DNA from: Hydrurus foetidus
Lineage: Eukaryota
Length of the DNA: 64,000 bases
Direction of reading: 5' to 3'
NCBI GenBank assembly: GCA_900617105.1
Contig: UYFQ01000645.1
Coordinates: 1-64,000 of the forward strand
Shown here: piece by piece, positions 1 to 57,081 of the stretch
Numbering within the stretch: position 1 is the stretch's first letter
How the letters are laid out: each line of letters starts with the position of its first letter
Notes under the pieces: generated by a model
Databases searched by the model: none
Told to the model about the DNA's origin: nothing
Seen by the model: the letters and a program-made list of their open reading frames with translations, nothing else
Program-made: the position numbers and the translations under genes

Positions 1-37
1 TAACAGATCGGATCTCGAAGATCAAGAACTGAAAGAC

Positions 38-1911
<1,874 letters not shown>

Positions 1912-1954
1912 GTCCAAAATTCCGTATGCGGAAAATATCTCAGAAAATCGTATT

Positions 1955-4900
1955 TTGCCAAACATGCAAATGCTTTTATCAACAATCATACCTAACGAGA
2001 TTGATGATTACTTACAAGTAACAATATATCTTCCTCAGACCCAATCCCCGGCTACCGCTTTGGCGACCGAGTTGACAGCCGCGACCGCGACTCCAACCGC
2101 AAAGACGACTCGCGCCAAGCGGAAAAGGACAAAGACAAAGATCGCCGCGATCGAGACCGGTCCCCACCCAAATCCTCCTCCAGCTATGGACCAAAATAAC
2201 GGCATGGCCGCCTTAGCCCAAATCGACACCGGATGTCAAGTTGGGGACGTAATCAATCGTAGAGTCCTTCGGGGCCTACGTGGTGAACCCCAACTCCGCA
2301 CCACCGACTCTCCCATATGGATGTGTTCGGGTCTAAATAATCAATGTATTGAATCCACTGCTGTCCTTGATATTGTTGTATCATTTAACAAAAACGATTT
2401 AAAATACACTTTTTCTCTTCCGGTGCGAATTGCAGAAGATTCCAAAGTCGACCTAATCTTAGGATTGGAGACCATAAAAAACTAAATTTGGTTAAAATCA
2501 TTCCGGAATTCTTCCAATCTCCGGAAAATATCCAAAATGAAAAAATTCACTCATTACAAAAACTGAATCAATCCACAAACATGGTATTAAACCACGTGGA
2601 CGTTCCACTCATGCTAGAAGCAGAGTCGGACACAGTTACGAGTATTACAAGTCCAACCTTACCTCCGGTTATAACTAGCCGAGAGGGGATAAAACCCTCA
2701 GACACAGACAGTCGATGGCAAGACGACCTGGTGGCTCGAGGTGCTTGTACAAGCAAGACATGCACTCCTTCATGTGGGTGTCCCACTAGCTTAGCTGCGG
2801 CAGCGGCTAGGCTAGATTCTGATGAGTTCATTTTGCACTCTACGGTCGAGGCAGCAGTTTTGTTGTCACCTCCCCGACAAAATGATTTAGGTGTAACAAC
2901 CGACAGGAGTCCGGAATTAGCTACTCCTACTCCCTCATCCAAGGCACCAGCCCAAACACGTGGTTTAGTTGCTGCTCTACTCCGGGAGCGTGAAGAACTC
3001 CCAGAGGTTCAACCCTTCGGACCCGAAGAGATTGACTACAAGTCGAAGGATACCTTCGCTCCTTTCCAAGACAATCCAACAGAGGACAAAATGTACCTCA
3101 TCGATCTCATACAAATCGATGGTACCCCTGAACAACAAGCAAAAATTAGAGCAATTTGTGTCAAACACATAAAGCTATTCAACAACAAACTCGGACCAGA
3201 GCCCGCGCGAATTCCCCCTTTGGACTACCCGTACGGGATCCAGAGTGGAAAGTTTTCAAAAACCGCGTAGCACCACGACCAACGTCTACACGAAAACAAG
3301 TCGAAATCCGAAAACAAGTTGAAACTATGCTTGAACAGGGTATAATAGTCAAATCAGAGGCATCATACTATTCGCAAGTAACACTCGCGGCAAAGCCAGA
3401 CGGTTCATACCGATTCTGTATTGACTATCGTCACCTCAACGACGCAACGGAATCAGCAAGCTGGCCAATCCCTAATATTAAACAAATGTTAGCAAGATTA
3501 GGTTCACAAAAAGCAGACACATTCGGTGTAATAGACCTCACAGCAGGATATCACCAAGCACCGTTAACTCTAAGTACACGTGTGTATACAGCTTTCATAA
3601 CATTTATGGGCATCTACCACTTTACCCGACTACCTTTCGGACCCAAAAGAGCCCCCTCATATTTCCAAGAAATGATGGCCTCAATAGTCCTTTTAGGACT
3701 AATATACCAAATCTGTGAAGTATACCTCGACGACATCATCGTTTATGGTAATGGATTTGATCAATTCTGCGAGCGATTAGAAATCCTTTTTCAACGCCTA
3801 GAAAACAAAAACATTTCACTAAAAGCCGCAAAGCTAAAGCTAAATGTGCGAATAGTTGAATATGTCGGTAGACAAATATCTAAAGAAGGTATAACTATGA
3901 GTTCCAAAAAATAAGAGGTGTGACCGACTTTCCTATGCCACGAAAGACGACTGAACTTAGATCGTTCCTCGGACTCACCAATTATTTTCGGGATCATGTA
4001 CCAAATCACTCCAACGTGGTAGCACCACTGCACAAAATTATAGATCACGCCGCGAAAAAGCAATCAATGCTAATCTGGACAGATGACGCCGCAAATTCTT
4101 TTCAAAAGATAAAAGATCTAATTGCAAAGAGTCCTTTATTATATTTCATACACGATACAGCGCCCATTACCCTCATGACCGATGCGTCAGATTACGGGAT
4201 CGGCGGCTATTTGTATCAAGAAGTCGACGGAGAAAAACAACTCGTCGCTCTCGTAAGCAAGTCTCTTACCAAGACTCAACTGAAATGGTCAGTAATACAA
4301 AAAGAAGCCTTCGCGCTATACTATTGCTGTACTTATCTCGACGCACTGCTGCGAGACCGTAAATTCACAATCCTAACAGACCACAAAAATCTTACGTTCC
4401 TAGAAAAGGATAAAAACGAGATGGTCGGCAGATGGCGTATGGCCCTGCAGGAACTAGAATATACGATAGGGTACATCCCGGGAAAACAAAATGAAATTGC
4501 TGACGCAATGTCTCGCCTATGTTTAAACAGAATGCCTCCTAAAACAGGAATAATAGCAGCAATTCTGACACACAAACCAATAACGACAGAGCAATATAAC
4601 CTAATTGCAACGTGCCACAACACGATAGTCGGACATGGTGGTGTACAACGCACACTGCGTAATTTAAAAAAAACAAATAACATATGGCTGGGAATGCGTG
4701 ACGCAGTAAAAACATTCATTAAAAATTGTCCGTGTTGCCAAAAGATGTCGGCAATGAAATATCCCATCAACGCATACCGGTACACAACCTCAACATACAA
4801 ACCAATGGAATGCCTTAACATAGACTTCATTGGTCCATTTCCCGATAAAGGATATATCCTTGTTATGATCGACACCTTCTCAAGGTTTGTCGAACTCTAC

Positions 4901-5880
4901 GCAACACCTGATGCAACAGCCAAATCAGCGTGCACAGCACTTGTAGAACACGTGGGACGCTACGGCTCACCATGTATACTTCGATCAGATAATGGACCCC
5001 ACTTCGCAAGCCACATCATAGATGAGTTTGTGAAGATTGTTGGAACAACACACAACAAAATATTACCATACTGTTCAGAAGAAAACGCTATCGTCGAGCG
5101 AATCAACAAAGAAATCAATCGCCATATAACCGCGTACGCATACGAACGCGCAACTACGGAAAACTACGCGGAAATATTACCGTTTGTACAAAGAATACTA
5201 AATTCAACCGTAAATGACCGGATGAAAGTGTCTCCAGCACAACTCATCTATGGCAACGCGATCGACCTCGACGCAAACATCCTCCTCCCGAGAGATGAAA
5301 TTGATTTAGATTTCGACTCACTCACACGGTCAACTGATAAAATGTTAACGTTGCAAGATGAACTCATCGAAATCACCGCACGTCTACTCAAAGAATCCGA
5401 CGACTTGCACAATGCACAACAACTTCCCAACGTCACACAGTTCGGAGTCGACACATTTGTACTTGTCCAACAAAGAACATCACCAGAAACGCGCATGCAC
5501 ACACTGTGGCGCGGCCCAATGCGAGTTGTCAGCCACAACTTCGCAGAGTATACATTACTCGATCTGGTAACACACAAAGAAAAGTTGTACCACATGACCC
5601 AACTAAAACCGTTTCACTTTGATCCTACGCATGTCGATCCAACTGACATCGCTCGTAGAGATTATCTAGAATTCTTCATAGAGGAAATCCTAGAAATGAA
5701 AGGAAACATAAGAGCATACAAATCACTCACATTTCATGTGAAATGGCTCAACTACACCCATGAACACAACACATGGGAACCGTGGACACACATGCGTAAA
5801 GCGCAAAAGTACATGAGTTCTTAATCAAAAAGAACCTCAAACACTTAATACCACGCGAATTCATCGCAAACTACCGTTAA
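1955..5880 (+). CDS. pol: G1 Pol (protease, RT, RNase H, integrase, chromodomain), split by several frameshifts
   Basis: QIDTG protease; RFCIDYR, LPFG, YLDD RT; TDASDYGIG RNase H; CHN..GH..CPCC and DDE integrase; WRGPM; FHVKWLNYTHEHNTWEPW chromodomain. Confidence 0.93.
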
Positions 5881-6089: not shown

Positions 6090-6306
6090 TGTGACCCGCA
6101 CACCCGTACGGGCTGTACGGGTACAGGCGTACGTTCGGACCGGATCGAGGACGATCCGATCCATCCGATTCATTGCCATGATACCTGCTGTGTTTACCTG
6201 TAAGCTAACCACATTGTTTCCATAGCAATAGCTCTCCCAGCTTCTTTTCCCTTGCTCCCGCTCCCAGCCGTCCCGCTCCCAGTGCCCAGATCCTGGCAAG
6301 GCCACA
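6090..6306 (+). repeat. 3' LTR of G1 (217 bp)
   Basis: Follows PPT at 6074-6086; TG...CA with imperfect terminal inverted repeat TGTGACC/GGCCACA; partner LTR not in window. Confidence 0.8.
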
Positions 6307-9300
6307 GTTTGTCATTAATAACAAGTCTCTCAGATGGAGGAAGAAATATTCCTCTGTCTAATTTGAGTATATTGCCGAAAAGCAATTGAGATGCAGAGAT
6401 TTTTAAACGATCACTGTGATTAGAATTTAAAATTCTTTGCACAAATGGTAGTGATGTTGAATAATCATCAAGCGTTACGATATCGTAAGTTAAAGCACGA
6501 AGGTGTCTATTAACTTCTTTATTCATGCGTTCAACAATGGCGTTTTCTTCTTTAGAATATGCTAAAGTAAGACAATGTTGAGTGCCGATAAGAGTTAGAA
6601 ACTCTTTGATTAAATCGGAAATGAAGTGTGGCCCCTTATCAGAACGGAGTTGGAGAGGTGCGCCGAAACGACAGAAATGTTGCAAAAGGCATTGAGCTGT
6701 CGAAAGTGCCGAAGCATCTTTAGTATGAAACAGCTCAACCCACCTTGTGAACGTATCGATAATTACGAGTACGTACCCCCCGTCTGGAAACGGTCCTATG
6801 AAGTCTATGTTAAGGCACTCCATAGGTGTGTAAGTAGAAGTCGAAAAGCCGTGAGCATGAATTGGGATCTTTAACATGCTCATCTTTTGACAACACGAAC
6901 AGTGATCTATGAACCACCTGACATGCTGTCGTTGAAACTGCCACACTTTGTTGTTGTCTTTGAGACGCTTTAAAGTGCGCTCAAGACCAAAGTGACCAAC
7001 TTGTGAATTGTGTACATTACTTATAGTATTGTATTGTTCACGAGTCAGTTTGAACTTTTCAATAATATTGGCAGACATGATTGTCTCAAGTGAATATTCT
7101 TGAGGATGGTCAATCATGTTGTTACGACAGAGTCGAGACATCGAATCAGCTATGTCATTGTTAACACCAGAAATGAATTCAATTTTAAATGAGAATTCTG
7201 ATAAAGCCATAAGCCAACGAACAATCATTGGATTTGAATGATTTTTAATGTATAACAAGTTACGATGATCGGTGCGTAAAGTAAACATCCGATCACGTAA
7301 TAGCGATTTTAAATACGTGCACGCAAAGAAAATAGCATATGCTTCTTTCTGTATAACTGCCCACCTAAGTTGAGCTTTGTTAAGCGATTTACTAACAAAT
7401 GCTACGGGCGTCTCTTTTCCGTCAACTAACTGAAAAGATAAGCACCTACACCGTAATCCGATGCATCAGTGTGCAAGTAAATCGGATCGGTGTCACTTAA
7501 AAAGTGCATTGTCGTGCATTTTGCAGTTTCAGATTTAATTAACTCAAATGCTGAGTCAGCTTCTGGTGTCCAAACTATTTTTTAGATTTATTATAATCAA
7601 CAAGCAACTGGTGTAACGGATATGTACACTTGAAGCATTTTTGATAAAATCGTGAAAATAGTTTACCAAACCTAAAAAACTTTTAAGTTGTTTAGATATA
7701 TCTGGTTTTGGAAAATCTAAAACTTGCCGTATTTTTTCTTGTGACATTTTTAGTCCTTCAGCAGAAAGGACTTTGCCAACATAATCAATTTCGGAATAGC
7801 CAAGATAACATTTATTTGGTTTAAGAAATATTTTATGTTGTCGAAAGCGTTGAAAAACAAGACGGAGTCTAAAAACTAATTCGTCAGTGTCTTTGCCGAA
7901 AACATTGCAATCATCAATGTACATTTCGCATATAGTGTAAATCAATCCAGCTAATACAACAGTTGCCATGGTCTGTTGAAAATAAGAAGGAGCTCGTTTA
8001 GGCCCAAAGGGCAGACGAGTGAATTGATACACGCCACAGAAAAGTATGAATGCAGTGTATGCGCGTGCTGCAAGTGTAAGCGGTGCTTGATGATATCCTT
8101 GAGTGAGATCAAGTGTAGCGAATACTTTAGCTTTATGAGCACCAATTCGACGTAACATTTCATTTATGTTAGGAATGGGCCATGATGCATCTTCGGTACA
8201 ATCATTAAGATTTCGATAATCTATACACATGCGTTTGGTTCCGTCAGATTTTGGAACCATAAGCACTTGGCTGTAATAAGCCGCATTTGATTTCTCGATA
8301 ATCCCTTGCTCTTCAAGTTTCGCGAGTTGACGTATAATGTCAGCTTGATTTGCAGTGGATTGAGGTCGAGGAGGTGTTCTATTACGGGAGACTTTCCATT
8401 TTACGTCATCCACGTTAAGTTCAAACGGTGGGATATCAGCAGGGCTAGCCGGAAGCTCACTGCTAAATATATCCCTAAATTCGTTACATAGTAAACGGAG
8501 TTTATTTTTCTGATCTTCATCACCTGCTATGTGTATTAGCGAGAGTGAATCTGTATCAAGAAATTCATTAATCCATGGTGAAAAGGAGTCATTTAATGAA
8601 TCATCAATTTCATCTTCATCAGGCGGCACAACTCCAAATAGTTGTTCCGACTCTTGAATTAACGAAGCTAGTATGACATGTGTTTGGGTGACTGCCGGAT
8701 CTTTCATTTGGGTTAATGAAAGATCTTTTGGGGTTCCTTTAGAGGTTTGCAAAGTCTCTTCAGGCTGACAGCCACATGTCATGACCACATCTTCAGAAGT
8801 CGAGACTCCCTTTATTGGGGTTGGTCGCGATGAAGTGCTGGATTTTATTTGATCTGGGAAAATCGAGAAGAGATCTAAATCTCGTATAATTTTTCTTCCC
8901 ACTATCAGATCAATTTGTGTTTGTTCTAAAACATAAGCCGTGATTTGGAAAGAAGAATAATTATTTAAATCAGGGCAAAAATAAGAAAGGTTTAAGTCGA
9001 TGGTTTCAGAAATTTCATAGCAATGATTATCTAAACCACTACAAACTTTACACGCTTTCTTAGATGATTTAGAAACATGTTGTGTTAAGTTAAGATTATT
9101 TATAACACGCCTAGCTATGAAATTGCTGGCGATCGATCCCGTATCCAATAGAGTGAAGACTCTATTTTTCTCTTCCAGCGAAGTTTGCTGAGAAATATGA
9201 GAAATAAAGAAAGGGATAAGATGTTTATCCGATGAAACGGAAGGGTTGTCAATTGACGACATATTAAGGTTGTAAACGTAGTCACCTTTTTGTTTCTTCG

Positions 9301-9424
9301 CGACACGAGTAGTGTCTGCTGACGAAGCAGCGGTCTTAGAAGACGCAGAAGAAGAGGAGGAAGCGGAAAAGGAAGATGTTCCGTACGCGTTTGGAATGAA
9401 CGTCGCTTTGGGATCGATCTTCAA
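6307..9424 (-). CDS. pol: G2 Pol (PR-RT-RH-IN), frameshifted and truncated by the G1 insertion
   Basis: ORF 7556..9424 (LLDTG, RMCIDYR, LPFG, YIDD) and ORF 6194..7288 (TDHRNL, HHCC, DFIGP, RSDKG, VERMN); homology stops at RLVINDKL. Confidence 0.92.
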
Positions 9425-9479
9425 AAGATCTTTGCCTCCTTCCGACTGAAGGAAAGGTTTCTCGGTACTGTTAAAGTAC

Positions 9480-10686
9480 GGAGAAGAGCCGAACCGACAA
9501 GTGGCTACTAAGTGGCCAAGTCTCCCACAGCCGGAACAGTGGGGTTTGTCAGATTGCTCAGGCTTCTCGTCCTCTCGTTGCCGTTTTTAATTCGTGGCTC
9601 TTGAGGAGGACGGTTAGAGTTTTTGATCTGGCGAGAATGATCGCCATAAGTCGGGTGAACGTCTACAAACCGTAAAGCATCAATTGCTTCTCGTAGCTTT
9701 CTTAGTTGCGCACGCCACACGAATCGAAAATCATCGACCGTGATAAGACGTGGCGTTCTATCGAGAGTGCGGTACAAAACTGACCTCCAATTAATGGGTT
9801 CAGCTGGCAACTTATCAATAAGAATTTTAGTTGCTGTTAACTGCATGGCAGCTGACACCTCAGGGAATGCATCGACAATATCAGCTAAAAGCTGGTCTGT
9901 CTTTTCTTCCACTGATGGGTTCTTCAGGTCAAATTGAATTTGAACCTGAGTAATGGATTCAATGAATCCTAGTTTATCCGTTCTGGACGTAGCAGTTGCA
10001 GGAATTGCCAAATTCAATTCTCTACAAAAATTCTGATTAGTCCAGTTTCTCCAGTTGTTACAACTGTCTCGACGATCAGGGTCGGTTGCAAATCGAAGTT
10101 GCAAAAGGGTTTTAAAAGATTGGAAGTTGCTGTGATGAACGACATCAACTGGCCGAAACGGCGTTCCATTCGAGAGGAGAACCTCTGAAACTCTTTGAAC
10201 TTCTTGCCAAGACGGCTTGGCGCTCAACTTAGGAGCTTTCTCACCAACTTGCACGTACTGAGTTGGTGGTGCCAAAGCACGTTGATTAGCAGATCTATCG
10301 ACCGAAGTCGACGTGATCTCAGCCGAAGCTGGTGTCGCAGCCGAAGCTGGTATCGCAGCCGAAGCTGGTGAAAGCGATAAAGCAGACAACGCAGAAATGA
10401 CAGGCACATCAATAGCAGACACGACCGCAGGCCCCGACGTCGGCTGAGACGCCGGCGCAGACAGGTCTCCGGCGGGGTCCTGAATCGCAGGTGATCCAGG
10501 AGACTCTATGTCTTGGACATTGCGCTGCGTATGCTTGAGATACGCCTTCCGTGCTGCGACGGCGACAGCGCGCGGCTGAGCTCGTCTTAAGATGGCGCTG
10601 GTGTTGTCGGTGGTGTTGGTGGTTGCCTTAGCGTTGGTGGTTGCCTTAGCCGAGGCTTTGGCACGGATGCGGCGAATTGCCATGAT
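9480..10686 (-). CDS. gag: G2 Gag, with the CCHC knuckle in a shifted frame
   Basis: Part of ORF 9508..11295 from MAIRRIRAK; minus strand near 9495-9545 reads KPHCSGCGRLGHLVATC. Confidence 0.75.
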
Positions 10687-10759
10687 CCGAAAAATTTCCC
10701 GAGAAAAGATGGATGAGTAGAAAGAAATAATTTTGGTCGTAGGAACCAAATATCGATAT

Positions 10760-11044
10760 TGTGGTCGTTGGTGACCTGAAGTGGTCGTTGGTGACCTGAA
10801 GGCGAAGGACGAGGACGATGGACGAGGACGGAGGGCGAAAAACGAAGATGGAGAAGATGGAAGAGTAGTCTTATAGTTTACAGCGAGAAACAAGCAGTAG
10901 TATCTACAGTGATGTGTACTCGCGTGGAAACGAAAAGAAAAGAAAACTGTACCGGACTTTGGGTCCGTTCTAGAATCTACAGTACAGGTATAGTATACAG
11001 TCACAGTGTATCCGTACATGCAGTACAGATGCAGTGAGGCTACA
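10760..11044 (-). repeat. 5' LTR of G2 (about 285 bp)
   Basis: Minus-strand TG...CGACCACA, the same 8-nt end as the G3 LTR; internal 20-bp tandem duplication at 10761-10800; abrupt junction to Copia coding sequence at 11045. Confidence 0.78.
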
Positions 11045-14000
11045 CCCGTATCAGCACCAGCTTCAGCGAGGTCTAGTAGTGCAGCTGCTGCGATACTTGT
11101 TTGGAACGTATCATTATTTAACGAACTTGCTGGTGCTGAACTTGCTGGTGCTGGCACTGTAGCCTGAAACTGGGACTGCAATGTCGACGATGTCGATGTA
11201 GAGGGTACAGCTGGCTCAATCACCCCTTCATTGGACATATAGTTGGAAATATCGGCCAAATGAATTACATCAGCATCGTCGTGTAGAGCCATCATAGTTG
11301 GTAAAGGTGAAAGGATGTCAATATTGCGTGGATCGGTTTCCAGGAGACCGATGTCGGGTCCGCACCGCGGGAGTAGCCTTCGCTGATTGCTTTTGACGTA
11401 ATATAATTGACAATGATATCAGGCATTGGAACTATTTTGAACTGGTCTCTTGTCACGACATGATCGGTTGATAAGCACCACATTTTGACGCTTCCCGTCA
11501 AGTTCCCTGTAGGAAGGAGAGCAACGCAATCCTGCGTGCGAGATGCCATAGAGTTGTCGGTATTTGGAACAGTCGCGTGGAGGTAGTCGCCGAAGTCAAT
11601 TCGTAGGTCCTTAGAAGTATCGAGTTTTTTACCAGTAAATTGCTCTAACGGGCTGATGCGATCGTGAGACGTTCGAGACGGTTGTATGTTCAGGCGAGAG
11701 ACGCAGAACTGGACGCACATGATCAGCAATAGCTTTGTCATGACAAATGGCAGAGAGTTTTCGTACGAGCGTACCCGTTGCTTTATAGTCTGAATTTTTC
11801 GTTCTACAACTGGAACATGCTGGCCTGGTCCTGATGTATCGATGACGATTTTAAAGCTGTTGACATCGCCCCGATTGCTCCCTCTCCTTCGCTTTTTATC
11901 AACACGCAGTCAAACCCTCTACTTGAGGCGGTGGAGAGAAATGATGTAAGCGCAGAGGACATACACTCCACGCCTCTATTCTTCAATTGCACACAGAATG
12001 ATAGCCCCAAGGGAGATAGGACACTGAGAAGGAATTGAAGTTTCTTGACGAAGAAAACATCTACTACCACGACTTGCTCAACTTGCGTCACGCGTGGTGC
12101 GAGAATATTCGGACTCACTGCAGAGACTTGTTTGGCAGTTTTCCCTTTCAAGGATGGGATAGACGGCCCGAATATGGCGTCGGCGTGTATATCCATTTTT
12201 GTCACAGTGCAGTTCAGGATTCCAGAGTCTAACATATCCATAGTCGCTGCTGACGACGCATGAGCTAAGTTGAGCATTAGTTAACGTGCGGCTCGAGCCT
12301 GCAACACTTCTCATGTAATTTCTCATGTTATTGGCAACTGTTGTGATGAGTGCATTTTCTGCTGTCATATCGCATGTATACTGACTCGACAGTTTGCCAC
12401 CCACGTACATATCTATTCTGGAGAATAGATATGTACTACCAAAGACTCCCAGCGTGTAGACATCATCTGGAGAGCTGTACACGACGGTGCATCCTCTGTC
12501 GAGAGCTTCTGCGACTGATATAACGTTAGCGGCCGCATTAGGTTCAAAGGCTACATTCCCGTAATTGTCGAAACACCCCCGATGCTTGACCAACATTCCC
12601 TTCCACGATGAATCGATTCCTCCAATGTAAAATGGAGTTGAGTCTTTGATGCTTGTTAGAATTTGACTGTTTCAAAAGATCGACCGCGAGGCCTGATTGT
12701 CTAGGAGGATGTCGGTGCTCGTGAAAAAAAAACTGCGTCTTCTTTTCCTGATGTGCAAATAAACGCTGCATCGTGCGTGCTCATGTCGTCTTCGTAATCA
12801 GGGTCTTCGGTGGTGACCATAACACCTTGTGTACTGTCAGGGTTGTCGGGACAATTCGCCCAAAGGTGTCCCTTTGTTAGGTAGCCTCGGTAGGTTCTAT
12901 TCTCGATGACAGGTGGTTGCTGTTAAGGTGGCGGTGCCTTTTGGTTTTGTTGAGGTGGCTATCCCTTCTGGTTCCATCGTTCGCCTGGCCCTCTTTGTCC
13001 CCCGCCATCTCTACCACGCCCACCCCGTCCTCTACCACGGTCAGGCTTTTTGCAGTCATCGTCAGCCAGAGTGAATACGGAGTACATTTCGCCTCCTGGC
13101 AGTTGCTTGGATACAGCAGCCTTCCAACTAGAGGCAATCGTCCATGCGGCATGGAGCGTTTGCGGGAATGGAATTCCAATAGTCGCGTTGTTGGTTAGAT
13201 GGGCCATCATCGATGCGTATCGGGTAGGGTCCAGTCTTGTCAAGAATAGAATAGCCAGTTCCGGTTGTGGAGGCGGGTCCCGTGATCACACTGATCTGAT
13301 CATCGAATACCTTCTTAATCTTTCCTGTCCTCACGTTGGGCTTTTGTCTGATGGCGTTGAATTTCGTCTTGAGTGTAACGATTTCAAGCTTTCACGTCTC
13401 TCGTCCAGCACCATGAATCGCTGTCGTGTGGGTTTCCACAATAATTGTCCATAAGGTGTTAGGATTTTGGGCCAGGTCCGCCTCTTCGTAATTTTCTTCT
13501 CTCGATTCCAGCGACAGTGTTTCCCAAAGTGTTACAGCTTGGGTGCATCATCCTTTAGCTTTGAGATCGCCTTATTTCTCAGTTTTTCTGCATCGAGTCT
13601 GAGTGCAGCTATCGCTGCCGCTCCAAGTGCCGGCAATTATTCGTCGCCTTCGTCTGCGGCGAATGGCATATAGTCTGCTGGTTGGACTGGATCGGGTACG
13701 TAAGGCTCATTGGTTTTTAGTACGTTGGCCAGGAATCCGAATTCTTTGCAGCATACGTTCAGTCTTTCTGTCTTCCATGCCATAAAATTGTTTAATCTTC
13801 CGAATAGTAGCATGGTTGGACCGTCCTTGGCAACCGACTTCAGGCTTGCCATTTCATCTTCTTCTTCTTTAATTTTGCGTTGTACACACAATCCTTTGTT
13901 GTAGTCCCTCTCGCGGATGCGTTCTAATTATGTTGGAAATAAGAAATTTAGCCGCGCGAATCTCCGATATCAAGGTGTGATAATCGTGAGTGAAATTCCG

Positions 14001-14223
14001 CGCTACAATCTCACCAAGGCTCGTAACACGAAGCAACTTCGGAATTAAGGTTACTTGTTATTTAGAACTGAGGTAACAGCAGTATGTAGCTAGTCATGTT
14101 AATGTCGACTCCGATTGGAGTTCAGTCTCCACTCGTCAAATATCTTATACCGTTTTACTCTCGTTACCCTCAGATGGTTATCGGTTTCATCCACTTAGAA
14201 TCTCATAATTCATAATTCCAACA
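11045..14223 (-). mobile_element. Degenerate Ty1/Copia retrotransposon C1 (5' LTR, gag, PR, IN; interrupted by G2)
   Basis: Fragments: gag (MASLKSVAK..., RLDPTRYASM, RGG repeats), LLDNQA protease, integrase (DVFFVKK, SEGEGA, FGDY, PTGNLTGS); Copia domain order; many frameshifts. Confidence 0.85.
13931..14223 (-). repeat. 5' LTR of C1 (293 bp)
   Basis: Perfect 8-bp terminal inverted repeats TGTTGGAA/TTCCAACA, about 80 nt upstream of the gag start. Confidence 0.8.
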
Positions 14224-14284
14224 TGACATCGTAGAGTACCGTACGTACTCCAGTGTAATGTACGCACGCACAGAGGGTAACCAC

Positions 14285-14898
14285 TGTCCAGGATTCAAGG
14301 TTTAAACTTGCATGGTTGTATGTATTACAATAATTTCGCTCTGACAACATCGACACCAGACCAATGCGCGCCACGCCTGTCGGGTAGAGGACCTGTGGCC
14401 CGGATTCCTGACGATACAGATGCCTTTTTACTCTGCCGAACGTACACAAAAAGGACTCGAGTTCGAACTCGTGACAGCGTGACGATATTTTGATTTATCC
14501 AACAGACGTATACTTTTGAATCCTGTTTTGAATGAATGATGCGTACGACTCATGAAGTAAATGATATGAACTTCAAAACTGGTACCTAGATAGATAAAAG
14601 ATGACATGTATGGTTGTAGTCTCCTGTTCGACGATCAACGCATACTTCTTTATCTCGTAATTAAGAAGCCACACTAAGTGCAACCACCCAACCTTCAGCA
14701 AAGGAAGATCTTCTGTCGACAGGAAAGCGCGCCTGAAGCCACAAGAACTTTCCTGCTAAAGGTACCAGCTTATATTACAGAAGGATAAAGGATAGAAGAC
14801 GACTTATTCTGAATTTGGTCCAACCTTCCCAGTTTCACCGTATCAGTGAAACGGTTGTAACCAACGAACAAGTCCACGGATTTGGAAAATCCCAATCA
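14285..14898 (+). repeat. 5' LTR of C2
   Basis: TG...CA direct repeat of 20078-20691. Confidence 0.93.
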
Positions 14899-14978
14899 TA
14901 AAGAAGTAACTTACTTAAGCGAAGACATCGCTTAGCACAAAGCCCAGAGAGCATCTGGCCAGAGAGGATCTGAAGAAA

Positions 14979-19640: not shown

Positions 19641-20077
19641 CCTCAACGAAGGACACGACAACTCTTACTGCAACATGGAGGTCTAATCATTTCAACTACC
19701 GGATGGGGACTCACTCAGATTCCTCTAGACAGTCAGAACACCCACGCGGAGGAAGGGAGGTGTATCACCGGTGCCGCGTGTTAGACCCATTTAGAATAAG
19801 AGCACTGCGGAGAACATTTGCAGAAGTTAGATTGGAGTGTCAATGACAATCGTGCTGGATCAGAGTTGTCGTGTCGTATCGCGTTGGCCAAGTCTGTCAC
19901 TCGTGTACTACTACTCTATCGTATCGGATTAATATATGTACTGTTTTCAACGAGACAGCTTTGAAAGAACCGGATTATCGAATAGCGCAGCGGCGCAAAT
20001 TTTTTTAAGCTACAAACGGCCAAAGCCACGAATTTGTTTTACTGAATCTTCAGAGAGTACGTCCGCATCAGGGGGTA

Positions 20078-20691
20078 TGTTCAGGATTCAAGGTATAAAC
20101 CAGCATGGTTGTATGTATTAGAGTAAATTCACTAAGATGCTACAAATTCAAAGAACCGCGTGCCACGCCTGCTGGTCTGGGGGGCTGCGGTCCAAAGGCT
20201 TTCTGAGACGGACCCCCGTTTTCCCTGCCGAATGTACGCAGAAAGGAGTCGAGTTCGAACTCGTGACAGTGTGACGACTTTTTGATTTATCCAACAGACG
20301 TTATACTTTTGAATCCTGTTTTGAATGAATGATGCGTACGACTCATGAAGCAAATGATATGAACTTCAAAACTGGTACCTAGATAGATAAAAGATGACAT
20401 GTATGGTTGTAGTCTCCTGTTCGACGATCAACGCATACTTCTTTATCTCGTAATTAAGAAGCCACACTAAGTGCAACCACCCAACCTTCAGCAAAGGAAG
20501 ATCTTCTGTCGACAGGAAAGCGCGCCTGAAGCCACAAGAACTTTCCTGCTAAAGGTACCAGCTTATATTACAGAAGGATAAAGGATAGAAGACGACTTAT
20601 TCTGAATTTGGTCCAACCTTCCCAGTTTCACCGTATCAGTGAAACGGTTGTAACCAACGAACAAGTCCACGGATTTGGAAAATCCCAATCA
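20078..20691 (+). repeat. 3' LTR of C2
   Basis: Preceded by AGGGGGTA, followed by TSD ACCAC. Confidence 0.93.
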
Positions 20692-23222: not shown

Positions 23223-26200
23223 CTATATATTAATGTGCGCTGAAATGGGCTTCGATAAGTTATGAAAGGACGGTGAGGCTGGATCGATGAAAATTGATGC
23301 GTCCAACTCAGGAATATTATCGTGGTCTGGTCCAATGTCAACGTCATGTGTGTAAACAGCTCTTCCCTTTCTCAGACTATTGGATTTCCAGATAACGCAG
23401 AGACAGGCGAATATTATTATAACGATAGTGGCGAAAAACGATCCTACTACAGATGCCGTTATCACTGTGACAGATGTGCCTGAATATATGTTAATATTGA
23501 GTAGAAACAAGTGAAAATATTTTTAACATGCAAGCAGTATCTTATGCAGTTATTATTGAATAATTAAACTTTTATGAACATGATGTAAACACGTAATAAT
23601 CATTTATAATTCAATTATGAAACCATCGCTATACCCCTTACAAACACACTATGTAATACAACAAAACAAAAATAGAACAAAAATAAACAGAAAAAAAGAT
23701 GATGACACTAATAGAATTAGATGCAATAAGAAGAAAATGCACTAACCTTCAACAGCACTAAAAAGCGACACCACAGATGGACTGGGATCAAATGTTGGAA
23801 ATGCTGTCGTGGGAAATAATGTCGGTATAAAAGTAGTTGGGAAGAAAGATAGCTGTAAAGTGGTTGGAGAAGCCGGGGGAGGGAGGGTTGGAAGATAAGA
23901 CGGGGAGAAAGATGGAGTTGTAGTTGGTGTGTGGGATATACTAGGCTTGACTGTTGGATATAGAGTAGGACCCATCGTTGGATTCGTCGGACTACTGGAC
24001 GGTGTGTTAGTTGGCTTGAGTGTTGTGGGGACTGATGTTGGTTTGGCAGTCGATGTAGGTGTGTATGACGGTCTTTGTGTGGGATAAGTAGATGGAGTAG
24101 AAGTGGGTTTTACTGTCGGTGTTGGTGTTGGCAATCTACTAGGTATTGAAGTGGTGGGAGAAAATGTTGGCGCTACAGCTGCACCATTTATAGCACTGCC
24201 TAATTTGACTAAAATCTGATGCATTTTCCCGTAATTTGGTGATCCTAATCCACAAGCAGGGTCCCATCCTGGTGCCGCGTAAAACCCTTGGGGGCAACAA
24301 GTGCCTCCTATCACACATTTGTTGTGACCTGAAGTAATGTCATTCATAAAAGATGCTCCGTGTGCGTAGAGAGCAGGATTAACCCATCCAACTGACCCTT
24401 TTCCTATAGCCATTCGAGCCGCATTTATATTGGAAAAAAATCCAGCAACAGCTGGGCTTGAGGCTGATGTGCCGCACACAGTTCCCGTCTGACCACCCAT
24501 ATACACCGCGTAATTCACACCAGCAAGAGATATATCCGGAAACCCACGGCCAGATACGGCATACCCGGCCACTGGGCTTTGATTGGCAGCAGCAGCTGAT
24601 GTGAAGTATGAAGAAATTGCGTTTGTTTGCCAATAGGGCATGGGGTAGTAGCCTGAGAAACCACCACCTGTGGTGATAACTCCGTCTGTGTCGCCTTGAC
24701 AGACTTTCTCAGGTTGGATTGGCTCAAGCTGTAATCCCTATGGAGGAGAGGAGAGAGGAGAGGAAAAGTGGCGAGAACAAAAGAGGAGTAAAAGTACAGA
24801 CGATGGAAGAGCAAGATAGGAAGGAGTGTATGACAATTGGAGATACTAGAATAGGGAGGGGATGTGGTAAATTTGGTAGATGAGGCAGAAAGCGGTGGGG
24901 GGGGGGGGGAGAAGGGAAAGGACAGGAGAGGAGATACAAAAAAGGGAAGATAATAAAAAAGGGAGGGAAGTAAAGTGATAAAAGATAAGATAGGAGATAA
25001 AAGGAATCAAAAACACGAAAGAGACATCATCTGTGCAGTCAAGCAAAACAATCATGAAAACTATAACAATGTCATTGCAAATAATGACTCACCGATGTTG
25101 CACCAACGGAAACGATGTAAGGGTTGGTGGCCGGCCAGGACGGACGATAGCCGCATTGAGCCGTATTATCCCGGGCATATCCGCTATTCGCTCCATCATC
25201 TCCTGAAGCAACAAATATCGTGATACCCATCACACCTAGTTTAATCGCTTGAAATGTAAAGGCGTCATGCCCGCCTGGTGATACCAAATTTTCATACGCA
25301 CCCCAACTAATGCTCAGCACTAAAGGAGGATTAACCATTTCAGCAACGAGAATCAAGAAGTACGTGAAGTCTCCCGGCACATACCAATGATAGCTAGGAG
25401 ATGCTTGAGATGTTGCCATAATGTACTGAATATCTAGATTGCTCTCACCGCACTGAGAATGATTTACTACACACACAGTGTCATTATCATGCCCATTTAT
25501 TGGAATTGCGCTTTGTATCTTCAAAGAATATTCGGTCTGCAACCGTGTCAAATCCTTAGGGCTGAAATTTTGCCCTGCTGTTGTGTAGATTGCTTGTGTT
25601 GATTTTTCGCTTCCTTGATAATTTGACATATTGTAGAAAATACGAATTTTCCTAGGACTGACTGCTTGCCAGTCGCCAGCTAAGCGAAATTTACTCTTCT
25701 CTGTTTTGGCAGTAGGTTTCTTCACCCTATGCGATCCGTCTTTACTGCTGTGCGTGATGAGCGGTGTGTCGATTGTGTTGAGAACGTGCATGACGTGTGG
25801 CCCTAGTTCCACTGGAATAGAATAGTCCTCCGCTCTAATAATTGCCTCAACTTTCCCATCGGTCTGAGTCTGATGAAAAGTGTAGAAATCAGTGTTGAAA
25901 AGTCTCTCCCAGACTGAAATCGGTGCTGTGGCAGTAATATATTCGCCGTTTATTGTCTCAGATATCGTAGTAGCTCCATTCATTTGGAGGTATGACAAGA
26001 CAATATTGCGACCTTCCGGATTAGAAGTCATTTCCACTACTTCTTTCATCGTCATGTGCTGACCATAGTTCTCGCTCTCTGGATCTGAGACGTCGTGGAG
26101 TATGCGAGTCAGCTCATCCATATTTCTTTGTTGAATCATAAACACGACTTCGTGTAGATGATCATGGTGCACACGTTGTCCTTTGAGAAGATCATCTCGG

Positions 26201-26271
26201 GAGGATATTAGCGGTATACTATCTTTGAGGATGTGTGTTTCGGCAGCATGTTTTTTGCTCGATGGCCTCAT
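23223..26271 (-). CDS. Sedolisin/tripeptidyl-peptidase-like serine protease (family S53) with P/T/S-rich stalk and C-terminal TM helix; exons about 26271-25093, 24737-23747, 23479-23223 (5' exon(s) probably further upstream)
   Basis: Prodomain (VSDPESENYGQH); GESNLD Glu/Asp; ASGDDG; SVGAT|..TGGGFS joined by a GT-AG intron; GRGFPDIS; GTSASSP catalytic Ser; GWDPACGLGSP; PT repeats; hydrophobic VVGSFFATIVIIIFACLCVIW. Confidence 0.9.
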
Positions 26272-27163
26272 TCCGGTTGATCCTGTACTTGGCTCTGATG
26301 CACTTATCTGGATTATTTGATGTGAGTCACTGATGCGATTATAGGTCTCAGAGAAAGTAGCGCATGTTGAGAACGCGCAATGAGGGTAGATGCATCTTGA
26401 TCAAATCGGCACTGCCCTCACTGAAGTCTGGTAGCCATTGTCTTCATGGTAGAAGCTCAAGTCGGTATGTCTACTTTTTGTGAGTTGACTGCAGCTCCAC
26501 CAGAGGTTGGAAGAGGTGGAGAAAGTCGGAAGTTGGAGGTGATCTGAAATTCAACGTATCTCAATCGCATGAAAATCATTCCATCCTTGAAATGAACTGG
26601 ACGTTCCACATAAAAGTCGCACCACCGGTTTCGTTTCGTCGGAAGTAGAAACGGGGAGTCAGATGGATCCTGGATCCAGATCACACCTAGAAACGAGATT
26701 CTTACCGTTGAAAATTAAATCAATTTGCCTTTTTTCTTTATTCCCTGTACTGTAGTTCTGCTGAACCAATACTGGACACTGAAAATTATAGAATTTGCTA
26801 AATATCAATTTGCCGTGATAGTAATGCACGTCAAATTATTGGCGCTGTGTACAATGTCACGAATTTGAATTCTTCAGTACTTCTGAGTGAAATAAAATAT
26901 AGACTTCGATTGTTGTCAACTAGTTGTTAATATATTTAACGAATCGATTGTAATAATTAAAGTAATATTAAATAACATCAAAACAACTTCGTTCACATCA
27001 TATCGTTTCTTTTCCTAATTCTAACTTTTTTTTATGTTCTTGTAGTAGAGCAATTATTGCGCTTCTATTTCTCGCAACCTTGAGAGCCGTCAATCCTTTC
27101 TGAAAACGCGTAAAGAATAATACAAAATAAAATGAGTACTCACGATAATTACATATCAGCGTA

Positions 27164-44292: not shown

Positions 44293-44501
44293 CGTGATAG
44301 TACCGGGTCCAGGGTCCCGATCCTACCGGGTACCGACTCTACCGGATCCTACCGGGTACTACTACTGTACACTACAGTTAGGCTGTAGTATCGTCGTAGC
44401 CTTCTGCAGCGTCCACTAAGAAGTTAAGTAGCTTCTAGCCTAGCGACTCTGTAACTAAGCCTACCACTCCTCGACCCCTTTCTCCATCTCTCCCGACCAC
44501 A
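44293..44501 (+). repeat. 5' LTR of G3
   Basis: Near-identical to 50897-51105. Confidence 0.93.
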
Positions 44502-45075
44502 ATAGATCTATTATCCTCGGGGAAATTTCTACTGCCCCTAATTCCCTCTACTCGTCCAAACTTTAGTTACGACTTCCAACACCTGAGTATTATTACTCAC
44601 GACATCTTCGGAGTCGAAATTCTTGCTGAGCTACGCTCCAAGAACTTAGTTTTAAGTTAGCGAAAGTTGGGCTTAGCCTCTTTCCTCTTGGAACCCATTA
44701 TTGGTGTCTCCAAAGTTCGTAGTTGGTTGAATTCGCGAAAGCCTTCACCACTCGACATTCTCAAACTCGTCGGTTTGCAATTTGAACATTGGATTCATTG
44801 CTAACGACACCAAATTAGTCTAAGGACTTCTTTTGGCTGGTGGGAATTACTTCCTTCATCCTTTACGGACACCAAAAATTTTCTCCACTCAAAAATTGGC
44901 TTTCACGCCTAAGAGATTTTCTCAACAAGAGTTGGTTGAAATCGACTTATTCGCTGTTACTTGCGTAAAGTACCCTCAAAGCTAACAAGGCGAAGCTCTG
45001 GCAAAATTTTTTGACGCGGAGATCCCTTCGTTGCTTAGACTTTGACGGATTTATAACGTCTTGAAGTCATATACC

Positions 45076-54090: not shown

Positions 54091-55475
54091 CGGTGCACAG
54101 GTGCACCAAGAATTTGATGCACGCGTGCGCCGAAAATCGAAAAAAATTACCCTATAAAAAGCATCGTACTATAGTTGAAAAACGGTTTTCAAACTTCTTC
54201 GAAATTTAAGATTTATTTTCCCGTGTAAAATTTTCGGTGGATCTTAAAATTTTTCCGAAAATAGAACGAAAAGTTAGATGATTGACCCTATTGTTGGGTC
54301 CAAGTTCCCTCTATTGAATCATCTAACCAGCAAAAATAACACTATATTCGAATGTCAAAAAATGATGCACCTGTGCATCAAATGGTGCACAGGTGCATCA
54401 CTTGGGAGACGGGAGATCAATTGTTGGCGAACTCGCGTTGACAATGGGTTTGGGTGGATTGATAATTAGGGGACGAGACAGGACTGCCGGTGGTGGTCAA
54501 CATCGTTATCTGAGATGAGATTACCAGGAAGTCGGATCCATTGAGCGTCACTGACAATGAAACAAAGTAGTTCATCTGTTGTAGTCGGGTAGAACATCCA
54601 GCCTAGATAGCCTGAAGTGCAACGTCACACTACCCCCACTTATCCTCGCCTCAACGAGAGTGTCCTCTTGGATCAAAGACAAGAACCACCAATGGGGAGT
54701 CGAACTCGCTCTCTAGCCGGGCGAGGTTCTAGCGTCGGTGTTCTACCACTTACCGTTGAAGTGGTAGATATGGCGTGGGAAAGCGGACCGCTGTTTTTGC
54801 ACCGCAAACGTTTTGTTATTTTTCCCGCATGGTTGAATATTTTTTGAGTTCCCGTTTCCCCTGTCAGTGAATTATCTTCAAAAAAGATTCTCTGTACTCC
54901 AGCCGTTAGAGCACTCTTCAGTAAACCAAGACCGAAGAATTCACAATTCATCCTACGATACAGGTAGTTTGCACAACTGCCATTAAGGCACGGAGGCACT
55001 TTGTGACGTGTTCTCGCGGATAGAGTCTTTGGAACGGGGGTAAACTTTTGCTGACTGCTTGGGGCTGCAACGCCATTCCTATCTCATCTCTGACTTATGC
55101 TCTAATACTTCACAATGATTCTCATGACCCGTGCACGAACTTCATATCAATCGCGGCCATTCGAAAATTTCCGAGGGATAACCGCGATCAGGAATAAGTT
55201 CAAGGACGTCGCAGATTGCCGAAAGTGTTTTTGTCATTCGGAGCTGACTTTCTACATCATTGAGATCAATCCATACGGTTGGACGAAATACGAAATACAA
55301 AATAGAAAAACACCGTAATCCTCCGGGTCCTCGTTTGTTATGGTGACGGATCCGAAATACAAAATGAAAATTTTTGTTTTTCGTGATCCTCCGGGCAGTT
55401 GTATGACAGAATGGAATTATTCAAATTAAATTTAAGAAATCGTCAGTTTTAAGCACTAGCAACTAAGTTGCAGTT

Positions 55476-57081
55476 ATGGAGAAGTCACCAAAACTTCGGG
55501 ACTGCATTGGTGAGGATGGGTATCCAGATTTTGAAAGTTATGTCGTCTTTAAGAAGAGGTGCGATGAGCTATTAGAAGAAAACGAGGCTGCCCAACCAGT
55601 TCCACCAAAGAAAATGCCATTTCGTAACAGAAATAACGGTGGATACAATCCTAATGACTGCTTTGAGTCAGATTGGTATCGCAGATACGTCAGATTCCCT
55701 GATCATCCACTGAATAAGAAGCATATGAATCTATTTAGAAGAAGATTTAGAATGCCTCACACTGCATTCTTAGATCTAGTGAGGGAGGCTAGAGAAGATA
55801 AGTGGTTTCCTGATTATGAAAGACGTAACGCTCTTGGGGAGATGGGCATTTTACTGGAAATATTGATTTTGGGAGCACTACGTTACCTGGGAAGGGGCTG
55901 GACTTTCGATGACCTCTACGAGGCTACAAGCGTCTCTGAAGAAGTACATCGTCGATTCTTCAAAGTATTCGTTGTAGCCTGCCGCAAACATCTCTATCCC
56001 AAGTGGGTGAAGAGGCCGGAAACTCCTGAGGAGATAGAAGACTGTATGTCTGAATATGCTGAGGCTGGTTTTGATGGGTGTATTGGGTCAGCGGATGTTA
56101 CACATATCATATTGGAGAGGTGCCACTACAAGCTTAAGAATCAGAATTTAGGAGGGAAAAGTTCTCATACGACGCGTGCATTCCAAATCGTGGCCAATCA
56201 TCGACGCCAGATTATTGCGTCAACAGTTGGATATCCCGGAAGATGGAATGATATGACTATAGTGCGATTTGATGGGTTTGTGACTGACATGCAGAATGGT
56301 ACATACTTGAATGATCATCAATTTACACTGAAAGATAGCGAGGGAAAAGATGAAAATTATACTGGGGCCTGGATCCTTGTGGATGGGGGATATTTAAATT
56401 GGCCCACACTTATATGTCCCTTCAAACATTCACAGTCGAAGAAAGAACAGCGTTGGTCCAAATGGGCCGAGTCTATGAGAAAAGATGTCGAATGCACCTT
56501 TGGGATACTAAAAGGTAATAGATAATAATATATTTAAAATTTATTAATATATTTAATATATAATCACTATATTTATAGGGAGATGGAGAATTTTAAAATC
56601 GGGAATCAGAGTTCATGGGATCGAAGCTGCTGATAACATTTGGTTTACTTGCTGTGCCCTACACAACATGTTACTGAATGTTGATGGATTAGATAAGAAG
56701 TGGGAAAATGGTGTACCAAGTACTTTTGAAGGTGAATTAGGGTGGCATGCCGTAGGTGATGTTGAAACTTATGCCCCACTTATATTTCGTAGAGTAAGAG
56801 ATGAATGTGATATAAAAGAACTTGATACTTCACAATTTGCCCGAGGAGATGGATACTTCACAATTTGCCGATACTTCCATCTAAATGATTTATGTAATAC
56901 TCATTTAGACAACCGAGAGGAAGAAATAAAAAACTTACAAAATAGTGGAGAAGAAAATACTTATAAAATATTAAGAATGAAAAATAAAGATTTTAGAGAA
57001 AAATTAGTAACTAGTTTTCATAGGAGGTGGGCTGTTAAAGATATAGTATGGCCTTCAAGAACAGGCAAAATGAAAGAGTAA
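55476..57081 (+). CDS. Harbinger-type DDE transposase, intron 56515-56578
   Basis: FRRRFRM, LRYLGRG, CIGSADVTH, GRWND, LVDGGY, RKDVECTFGILKG|RWRIL, CCALHN; the GT-AG intron restores the frame. Confidence 0.92.

Follow-up and report, generated by a model that had tools for sequence, protein, structure and literature searches.

Self-priming of reverse transcription has been shown experimentally for the retrotransposon Tf1 and is implied for related Gypsy elements (PMC7175516, PMC4600332; available sections). In Tf1 the first 11 bases serve as primer, with the cut falling between bases 11 and 12, as set out in the available sections of PMC7175516. For Copia elements, the available text of PMC6317226 gives self-priming as a blastn prediction for plant elements of the TAR type (Houba, Osr-1) and, in a survey of plant LTR elements, for 12% of them; the criterion used there was at least 10 LTR bases complementary to a region starting 0–5 bp after the 5′ LTR. 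A further group of Copia elements lacking a tRNA site, the fungal GalEa elements, carries a Conserved Hairpin Site whose partner lies 12–41 bp downstream, with none described in the LTR in the available part of PMC5445492. The main text of PMC2806351, on the diatom CoDi elements, contains no passage on primer sites. The literature covered, largely open-access main texts, contained no report of a self-priming Copia element outside plants. The mechanism itself is thus not new, having been shown for Tf1 and predicted for plant TAR Copia elements.

The window, by which is meant the whole 64-kb stretch of DNA analysed, contains a nested cluster of LTR retrotransposons at 1–20700: a Gypsy element at 1–5824 (plus strand), a second Gypsy element at 6194–11045 (minus strand) lying inside the Copia element C1, and C1 itself inside an LTR of another Copia element, C2. 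The minus-strand Gypsy element has no identified 3′ LTR in the window. Two Gypsy LTRs end in CGACCACA, followed by a 12-base palindrome that takes in the last LTR A and replaces a tRNA site; the two palindromes, AATAGATCTATT at 44501–44512 (plus) and AATATCGATATT at 10760–10749 (minus), vary at the centre yet stay palindromic. The window also carries a sedolisin-type peptidase gene with a Pro-kumamolisin domain at 23742–26400 (minus) and a Harbinger-type transposase gene at 55467–57081 (plus).

For comparison with other copies, contigs from 7 of 21 listed sequencing runs were used, the runs containing the stretch coming from one coded organism and from freshwater, sediment and air metagenomes. 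The 5′ LTR of C1 occupies 13931–14223 on the minus strand; it is 293 bp long, runs from TGTTGGAA to TTCCAACA, the last base of which is 13931, and has an 8-bp terminal inverted repeat. Record 10 of run X2 is a contig of exactly 13931–14097 at a depth of 853, where the internal contig has 392, and a loose contig end places AAGGGG plus two bases, a purine tract, before the LTR start; the LTR ends are therefore backed by contig breaks, doubled depth and the purine-tract end. C1 was inserted in the U3 of the C2 5′ LTR, and two contigs, record 3 of X1 and record 11 of X2, run across the junction. Behind the LTR, a broken gag-protease-integrase frame at 11251–13852 (minus) is collinear with residues 19–899 of the polyprotein of an intact relative, L002, and its linker runs on to about 11046, where the Gypsy LTR begins. 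The frame carries stops and frameshifts, so that the element is decayed, as the original prediction had it, and its reverse transcriptase, RNase H and 3′ LTR are absent from the 64-kb window.

Assignment to Ty1/copia follows from a TG...CA LTR with terminal inverted repeat and a purine tract before the 3′ LTR (C1 family and L002), and from an RVT_2-type reverse transcriptase behind protease and integrase, seen through L002 with that of C1 lying outside the window. The protease, integrase and RNase H are presumed from motifs that we take to be characteristic, searches of Pfam and PDB having returned no match for these regions. The polyprotein may resemble those of diatom CoDi elements. Membership of Tf1/sushi by descent was rejected, since the RVT_2 domain stands behind the integrase region and the order is not that of Ty3/gypsy.

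The ten bases TAATTAGAAC at 13930–13921 (minus) adjoin the LTR end without a spacer, occupy the position of a primer-binding site and contain no TGG. Inside the LTR, directly behind a TCA at 14069–14071 whose A (14069) is the predicted transcription start, the putative self-primer decamer GTTCTAAATA at 14068–14059 pairs with them at nine of ten positions, the mismatch being 14061 opposite 13928. The arrangement originally described, a 9/10 match flush with the LTR end and behind CA, is thus present. When the LTR was dinucleotide-shuffled 5000 times, 1.72% of the shuffles paired at 9/10 or more at offset 0 and 4.5% when offsets 0–5 were permitted; among 18,198 window positions the share was 1.8%. 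The corresponding values for 10/10 were 0.12% of shuffles and 0.21% of positions. The chance level first put forward, about 1%, was slightly low, and the accompanying judgement that the match is modest by itself holds: because 9/10 arises in 1.7–4.5% of shuffles, the pairing of the window copy alone is weak. An origin by chance or as a side-effect of the terminal inverted repeat, with no function, would find support in these frequencies and in the LTR start, which also matches the site, at 8/10. With the family and both other elements taken into account, there is hardly any likelihood left in such an origin: the C1 family and C2 each pair at 10/10, and L002 pairs at 11/11 at a position fixed beforehand by C1, with four matched changes.

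From the LTR start, the sequence at 14223–14204 (minus) continues as TGTTGG-AATTATG, the complement of the junction CATAATT between LTR end and primer site. The window copy has this 7-mer twice and one family contig has it once; it could pair the 3′ end of the RNA near the primer site, or be a chance occurrence.

The single mismatch of the window copy had been predicted to resolve to 10/10 in the family. Six of the seven runs cover 14061 (X3 has no cover there), and all six, from five studies, carry the base giving 10/10 at full contig depth (477.8 in X1, 853.3 in X2, 13.4 in X5, 4.59 in X7, 29.9 in X8 and 5.61 in X11), which bears out that prediction and excludes the outcome that pairing would be no better; X1 and X2 may be the source of the window itself, and X7 contributes one contig at a depth below 5. 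Both sites lie on one contig in X1 record 1, which has six differences in 13880–14097 and none in the primer site, and record 15 of X5 covers the whole stretch, with none of six listed differences (of nine) in that site. In X8, a contig of depth 2 has a different base at 13929. Because contigs drop rare variants, the family contigs represent the majority state. Across 167 LTR bases the window copy and the majority contig disagree at 6, and for this reason the mismatch at 14061 is most likely decay after insertion, or else an assembly error. In the inferred U3 of C1 (14070–14223, minus, 154 nt), family copies vary by a 12-nt insertion at 14138 and a variant at 14211. Several other subfamilies match around the primer site (contigs at 13881–13940) and diverge inside the LTR; their contigs break off at 13936, 13940 and 14030, with TAACAAGTAACC retained at the break at 14030.

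A C1-like Gag alignment was used to scan metagenome contigs, giving two loci among 115 pattern matches. The two, L001 and L002, are 99.9% identical and represent one element. L002 is complete, with a 405-bp LTR and a single ORF of 1544 amino acids, in which an RVT_2 domain is found at residues 1074–1298 (E 4e-21), and its Gag is 49% identical to that of the C1 family. In all, 68 C1-like and 104 C2-like Gag proteins were gathered, the DNA being that of L001 and L002 only, and related loci numbered zero in viral contigs (five queries), prokaryote genomes (two queries) and plasmids. The N-terminal extensions of some called Gags (P0119) translate across a C1-like LTR end and primer site; these are protein only and were not counted.

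After its LTR, L002 carries TAATTGAATAT, which pairs at 11/11 with ATATTCAATTA inside the LTR, behind TC; none of 5000 shuffles reached this at offset 0. The primers of L002 and C1 align column for column, both are followed by ACAAGT(A/T)ACC, and both start 139 nt from the LTR end. Among the 11 pairs compared, 5 are invariant and in 4 both partners have changed; the remaining 2, at 14061 and at the +1 A, do not form in the window copy. With the partners slid by 1–3 columns, 27–36% of positions pair across C1 and L002, against 91% in register. A shuffle control for covariation gave 32/500; since two rows put this near the floor, the control cannot carry significance, and the L002 match has its weight because C1 had already set the position. 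The covariation rests on two alignable lineages because one diverged relative of C1 was obtained. The proposal that the pairing and not the sequence is conserved, made originally from C1 and C2, finds better support here, where the LTR is alignable and both members of 4 of the 11 pairs have changed, than in C2.

Likeness between the two LTRs was detected in R-U5 only. The R-U5 alignment of C1 and L002 scored 36, which none of 500 shuffles equalled, and 30 without the first 11 bases; that of U3 scored 13, where the shuffled mean was 16.4 and 496 of 500 shuffles did as well, so no likeness is detectable there. Homology between the LTRs begins at CA, which fits, without proving, a transcription start at that point.

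When the C1 and L002 leaders were folded together, RNAalifold gave the primer helix unprompted, together with a hairpin behind the primer and, at the LTR 3′ end, another helix in which further pairs have changed on either strand together. In C1 the predicted hairpin, P2, spans 14023–14054 (minus), pairs GTAAC with GTTAC directly behind the primer, and is also present in L002; the predicted helix P3 (13933–14017, minus) joins inner R-U5 to the LTR 3′ end beside the primer site, with double-sided changes relative to L002, and the family base at 13945 turns one of its G-U pairs into G-C. Coming from two sequences, these extra helices are suggestive only. Pair probabilities for the primer helix were 0.97–1.0 in L002 and 0.88–1.0 in C2, and for the C1 window copy 0.67–0.98 with 12–20 downstream bases and 0.03–0.07 with 30–60; forcing the helix in the C1 window leader gave −38.7 vs −42.8 kcal/mol. 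Whole-leader folding energies were unremarkable (z −1.5 and −1.6). The primer duplexes are A-U rich and weak, at −8 to −9 kcal/mol, and in neither C1 nor C2 does the predicted +1 A have a partner. Rfam returned no match over the C1/C2 LTR region, and for L002 four sub-threshold chance matches.

Since other R-U5 helices also co-vary, the C1 and L002 leader is under general structural constraint. The ten-base pairing might accordingly be one more structural helix, closing the leader for packaging, dimer formation or presentation of the site, with another molecule, for example a host small RNA, acting as primer; that the transcription start is itself predicted leaves room for this. We regard it as improbable, however, given the geometry of the helix: in all three elements it is 10–11 bp long and stops precisely where the LTR does, and it starts at a CA with which, in C1 and L002, LTR homology sets in. 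An outside primer would, moreover, have to displace the helix and would keep its binding site unchanged, whereas 4 of the 10 bases differ between C1 and L002.

C2 offers a second, more distant comparison. The part of its 5′ LTR left after the C1 insertion lies at 14224–14898 (plus), with U3 interrupted by C1, and its other LTR spans 19761–20691. At the primer-binding-site position, 14899–14908 (plus), TAAAGAAGTA pairs at 10/10 with its own LTR, where 14642–14653 (plus) comprises the predicted +1 A, the primer decamer TACTTCTTTA and one more base that pairs with the last LTR A. This decamer sits behind CA, 257 nt from the C2 LTR end, and differs from that of C1, in agreement with the original prediction. 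The same prediction had called the two elements related: the motifs LDNQA/LLDTQS and RLD..RY.S are indeed present, but the relationship exists only at depth, C1-family and C2-like Gags being 18–23% identical and forming separate lineages; the C2 reverse transcriptase is 39% identical to that of L002. The initiator-like TCAGTT described for C1 is likewise real in that element, but L002 has TCATAT and C2 has GCATAC, so that CA alone is common to all three. Measured against the full initiator, TCAKTY (PMC3601003, available text), C1 is the only one of the three to carry it.

The two C2 LTRs, compared over 14224–14898 and 20078–20691, are identical in R-U5 (257/257), match at 159/163 positions just upstream and at 149/202 further into U3; this mosaic is probably a recombinant of two subfamilies or a template switch.

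Each of the three primer sites matches best on its own LTR (9, 10 and 10 for C1, L002 and C2) and reaches 7–8 on the others. As a negative control, the young Copia element C3 (35301–42285, plus; 508-bp LTRs, 99.2% identical), which has the tRNA-type TGG site TGGTAGCG, reaches 7 on its own LTR. The C3 Gag has a CCCH-like zinc finger, according to weak Pfam matches. Priming by the 3′ end of a tRNA was rejected for the three elements, none of whose sites contains TGG. Priming by a tRNA half or an internal tRNA region, as in the Copia elements Osser, Bryco, Bianca and FunCo1, would make the LTR match a by-product; it is a known mode in Copia, likewise without TGG, and the FunCo1 site is A-T-rich. 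An anticodon loop has a pyrimidine at 32, U at 33 and a purine at 37. Under these rules the one anticodon compatible with C1 is CUA (stop); for L002 it is GAT, with 1 of 4–5 stem pairs, and for C2 there is none. The sites share no half-tRNA register. No tRNA gene was found in the 64-kb window. A tRNA matching the site is unlikely from these comparisons, and a tRNA would not explain three different sites that each match their own LTR; we accordingly give tRNA-half or internal priming very little credence.

As C1 apparently has no usual tRNA site and has ten bases that pair with its own LTR, with matched changes in a relative, it likely self-primes, and judging from the sequence comparisons we consider it probable that the C1 family uses a Tf1-like reverse transcription primed by the 5′ end of its own RNA. 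We infer the start, the folding in the cell, the cut and the priming as follows. Transcription would start at the A of CA (14069), and the folding of R-U5 would let bases 2–11 (1–11 in L002) pair with the ten bases that follow the LTR, aided by the two inner helices. As in Tf1, the cut by the element's RNase H would then fall behind base 11 and create a 3′-OH flush with the LTR end, from which reverse transcriptase would extend the primer over U5-R. Copying of the primer back into plus-strand DNA would keep both sites matched during drift.

C1 resembles Tf1 and Tf2 of Schizosaccharomyces pombe and the Tf1/sushi and Tcn1 groups in having no recognisable tRNA site, in some 11 bases of the 5′ LTR whose complement directly follows the LTR, and in further predicted RNA structure around them (PMC7175516, PMC4600332; available sections). 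Those elements belong to Ty3/gypsy, whereas C1 is Ty1/copia, by the RVT_2-type reverse transcriptase behind integrase in L002 and C2, and the start and RNase H cut, experimental in Tf1, are predicted in C1. Complementarity as defined for TAR is found in the C1 family, L002 and C2, the window copy being one base short. TAR is described from plants, whereas the host of C1 appears to be another eukaryote, and its support in the available text is blastn prediction, without paired changes or experiments, whereas C1 and L002 show paired changes. With the GalEa elements, also Copia with no recognisable tRNA site, the C1 site has TAATTAG in common (in GalEa, CTAATTAGT; PMC5445492, available part), but the C1 partner lies in the LTR. 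A GalEa-type hairpin was rejected, the best downstream match being 5/9 in C1 and 6/9 in L002.

More broadly, and with somewhat less than even confidence, we suggest that a deep Copia clade outside land plants, spanning C1 to C2, has exchanged tRNA priming for Tf1-type self-priming, independently of Tf1 and TAR. The leader would fold into several conserved helices, and the Copia RNase H would cleave within an RNA-RNA duplex. If this is true, self-priming would be a major mode of Copia priming, repeatedly evolved or ancient, and no oddity. The paired changes at homologous sites, the fixed 139-nt leader and the intact single-ORF relative make a precise target for a first direct test in Copia. The finding also bears on annotation tools that require a tRNA site, and on whether priming by tRNA is the ancestral state of LTR retrotransposons.
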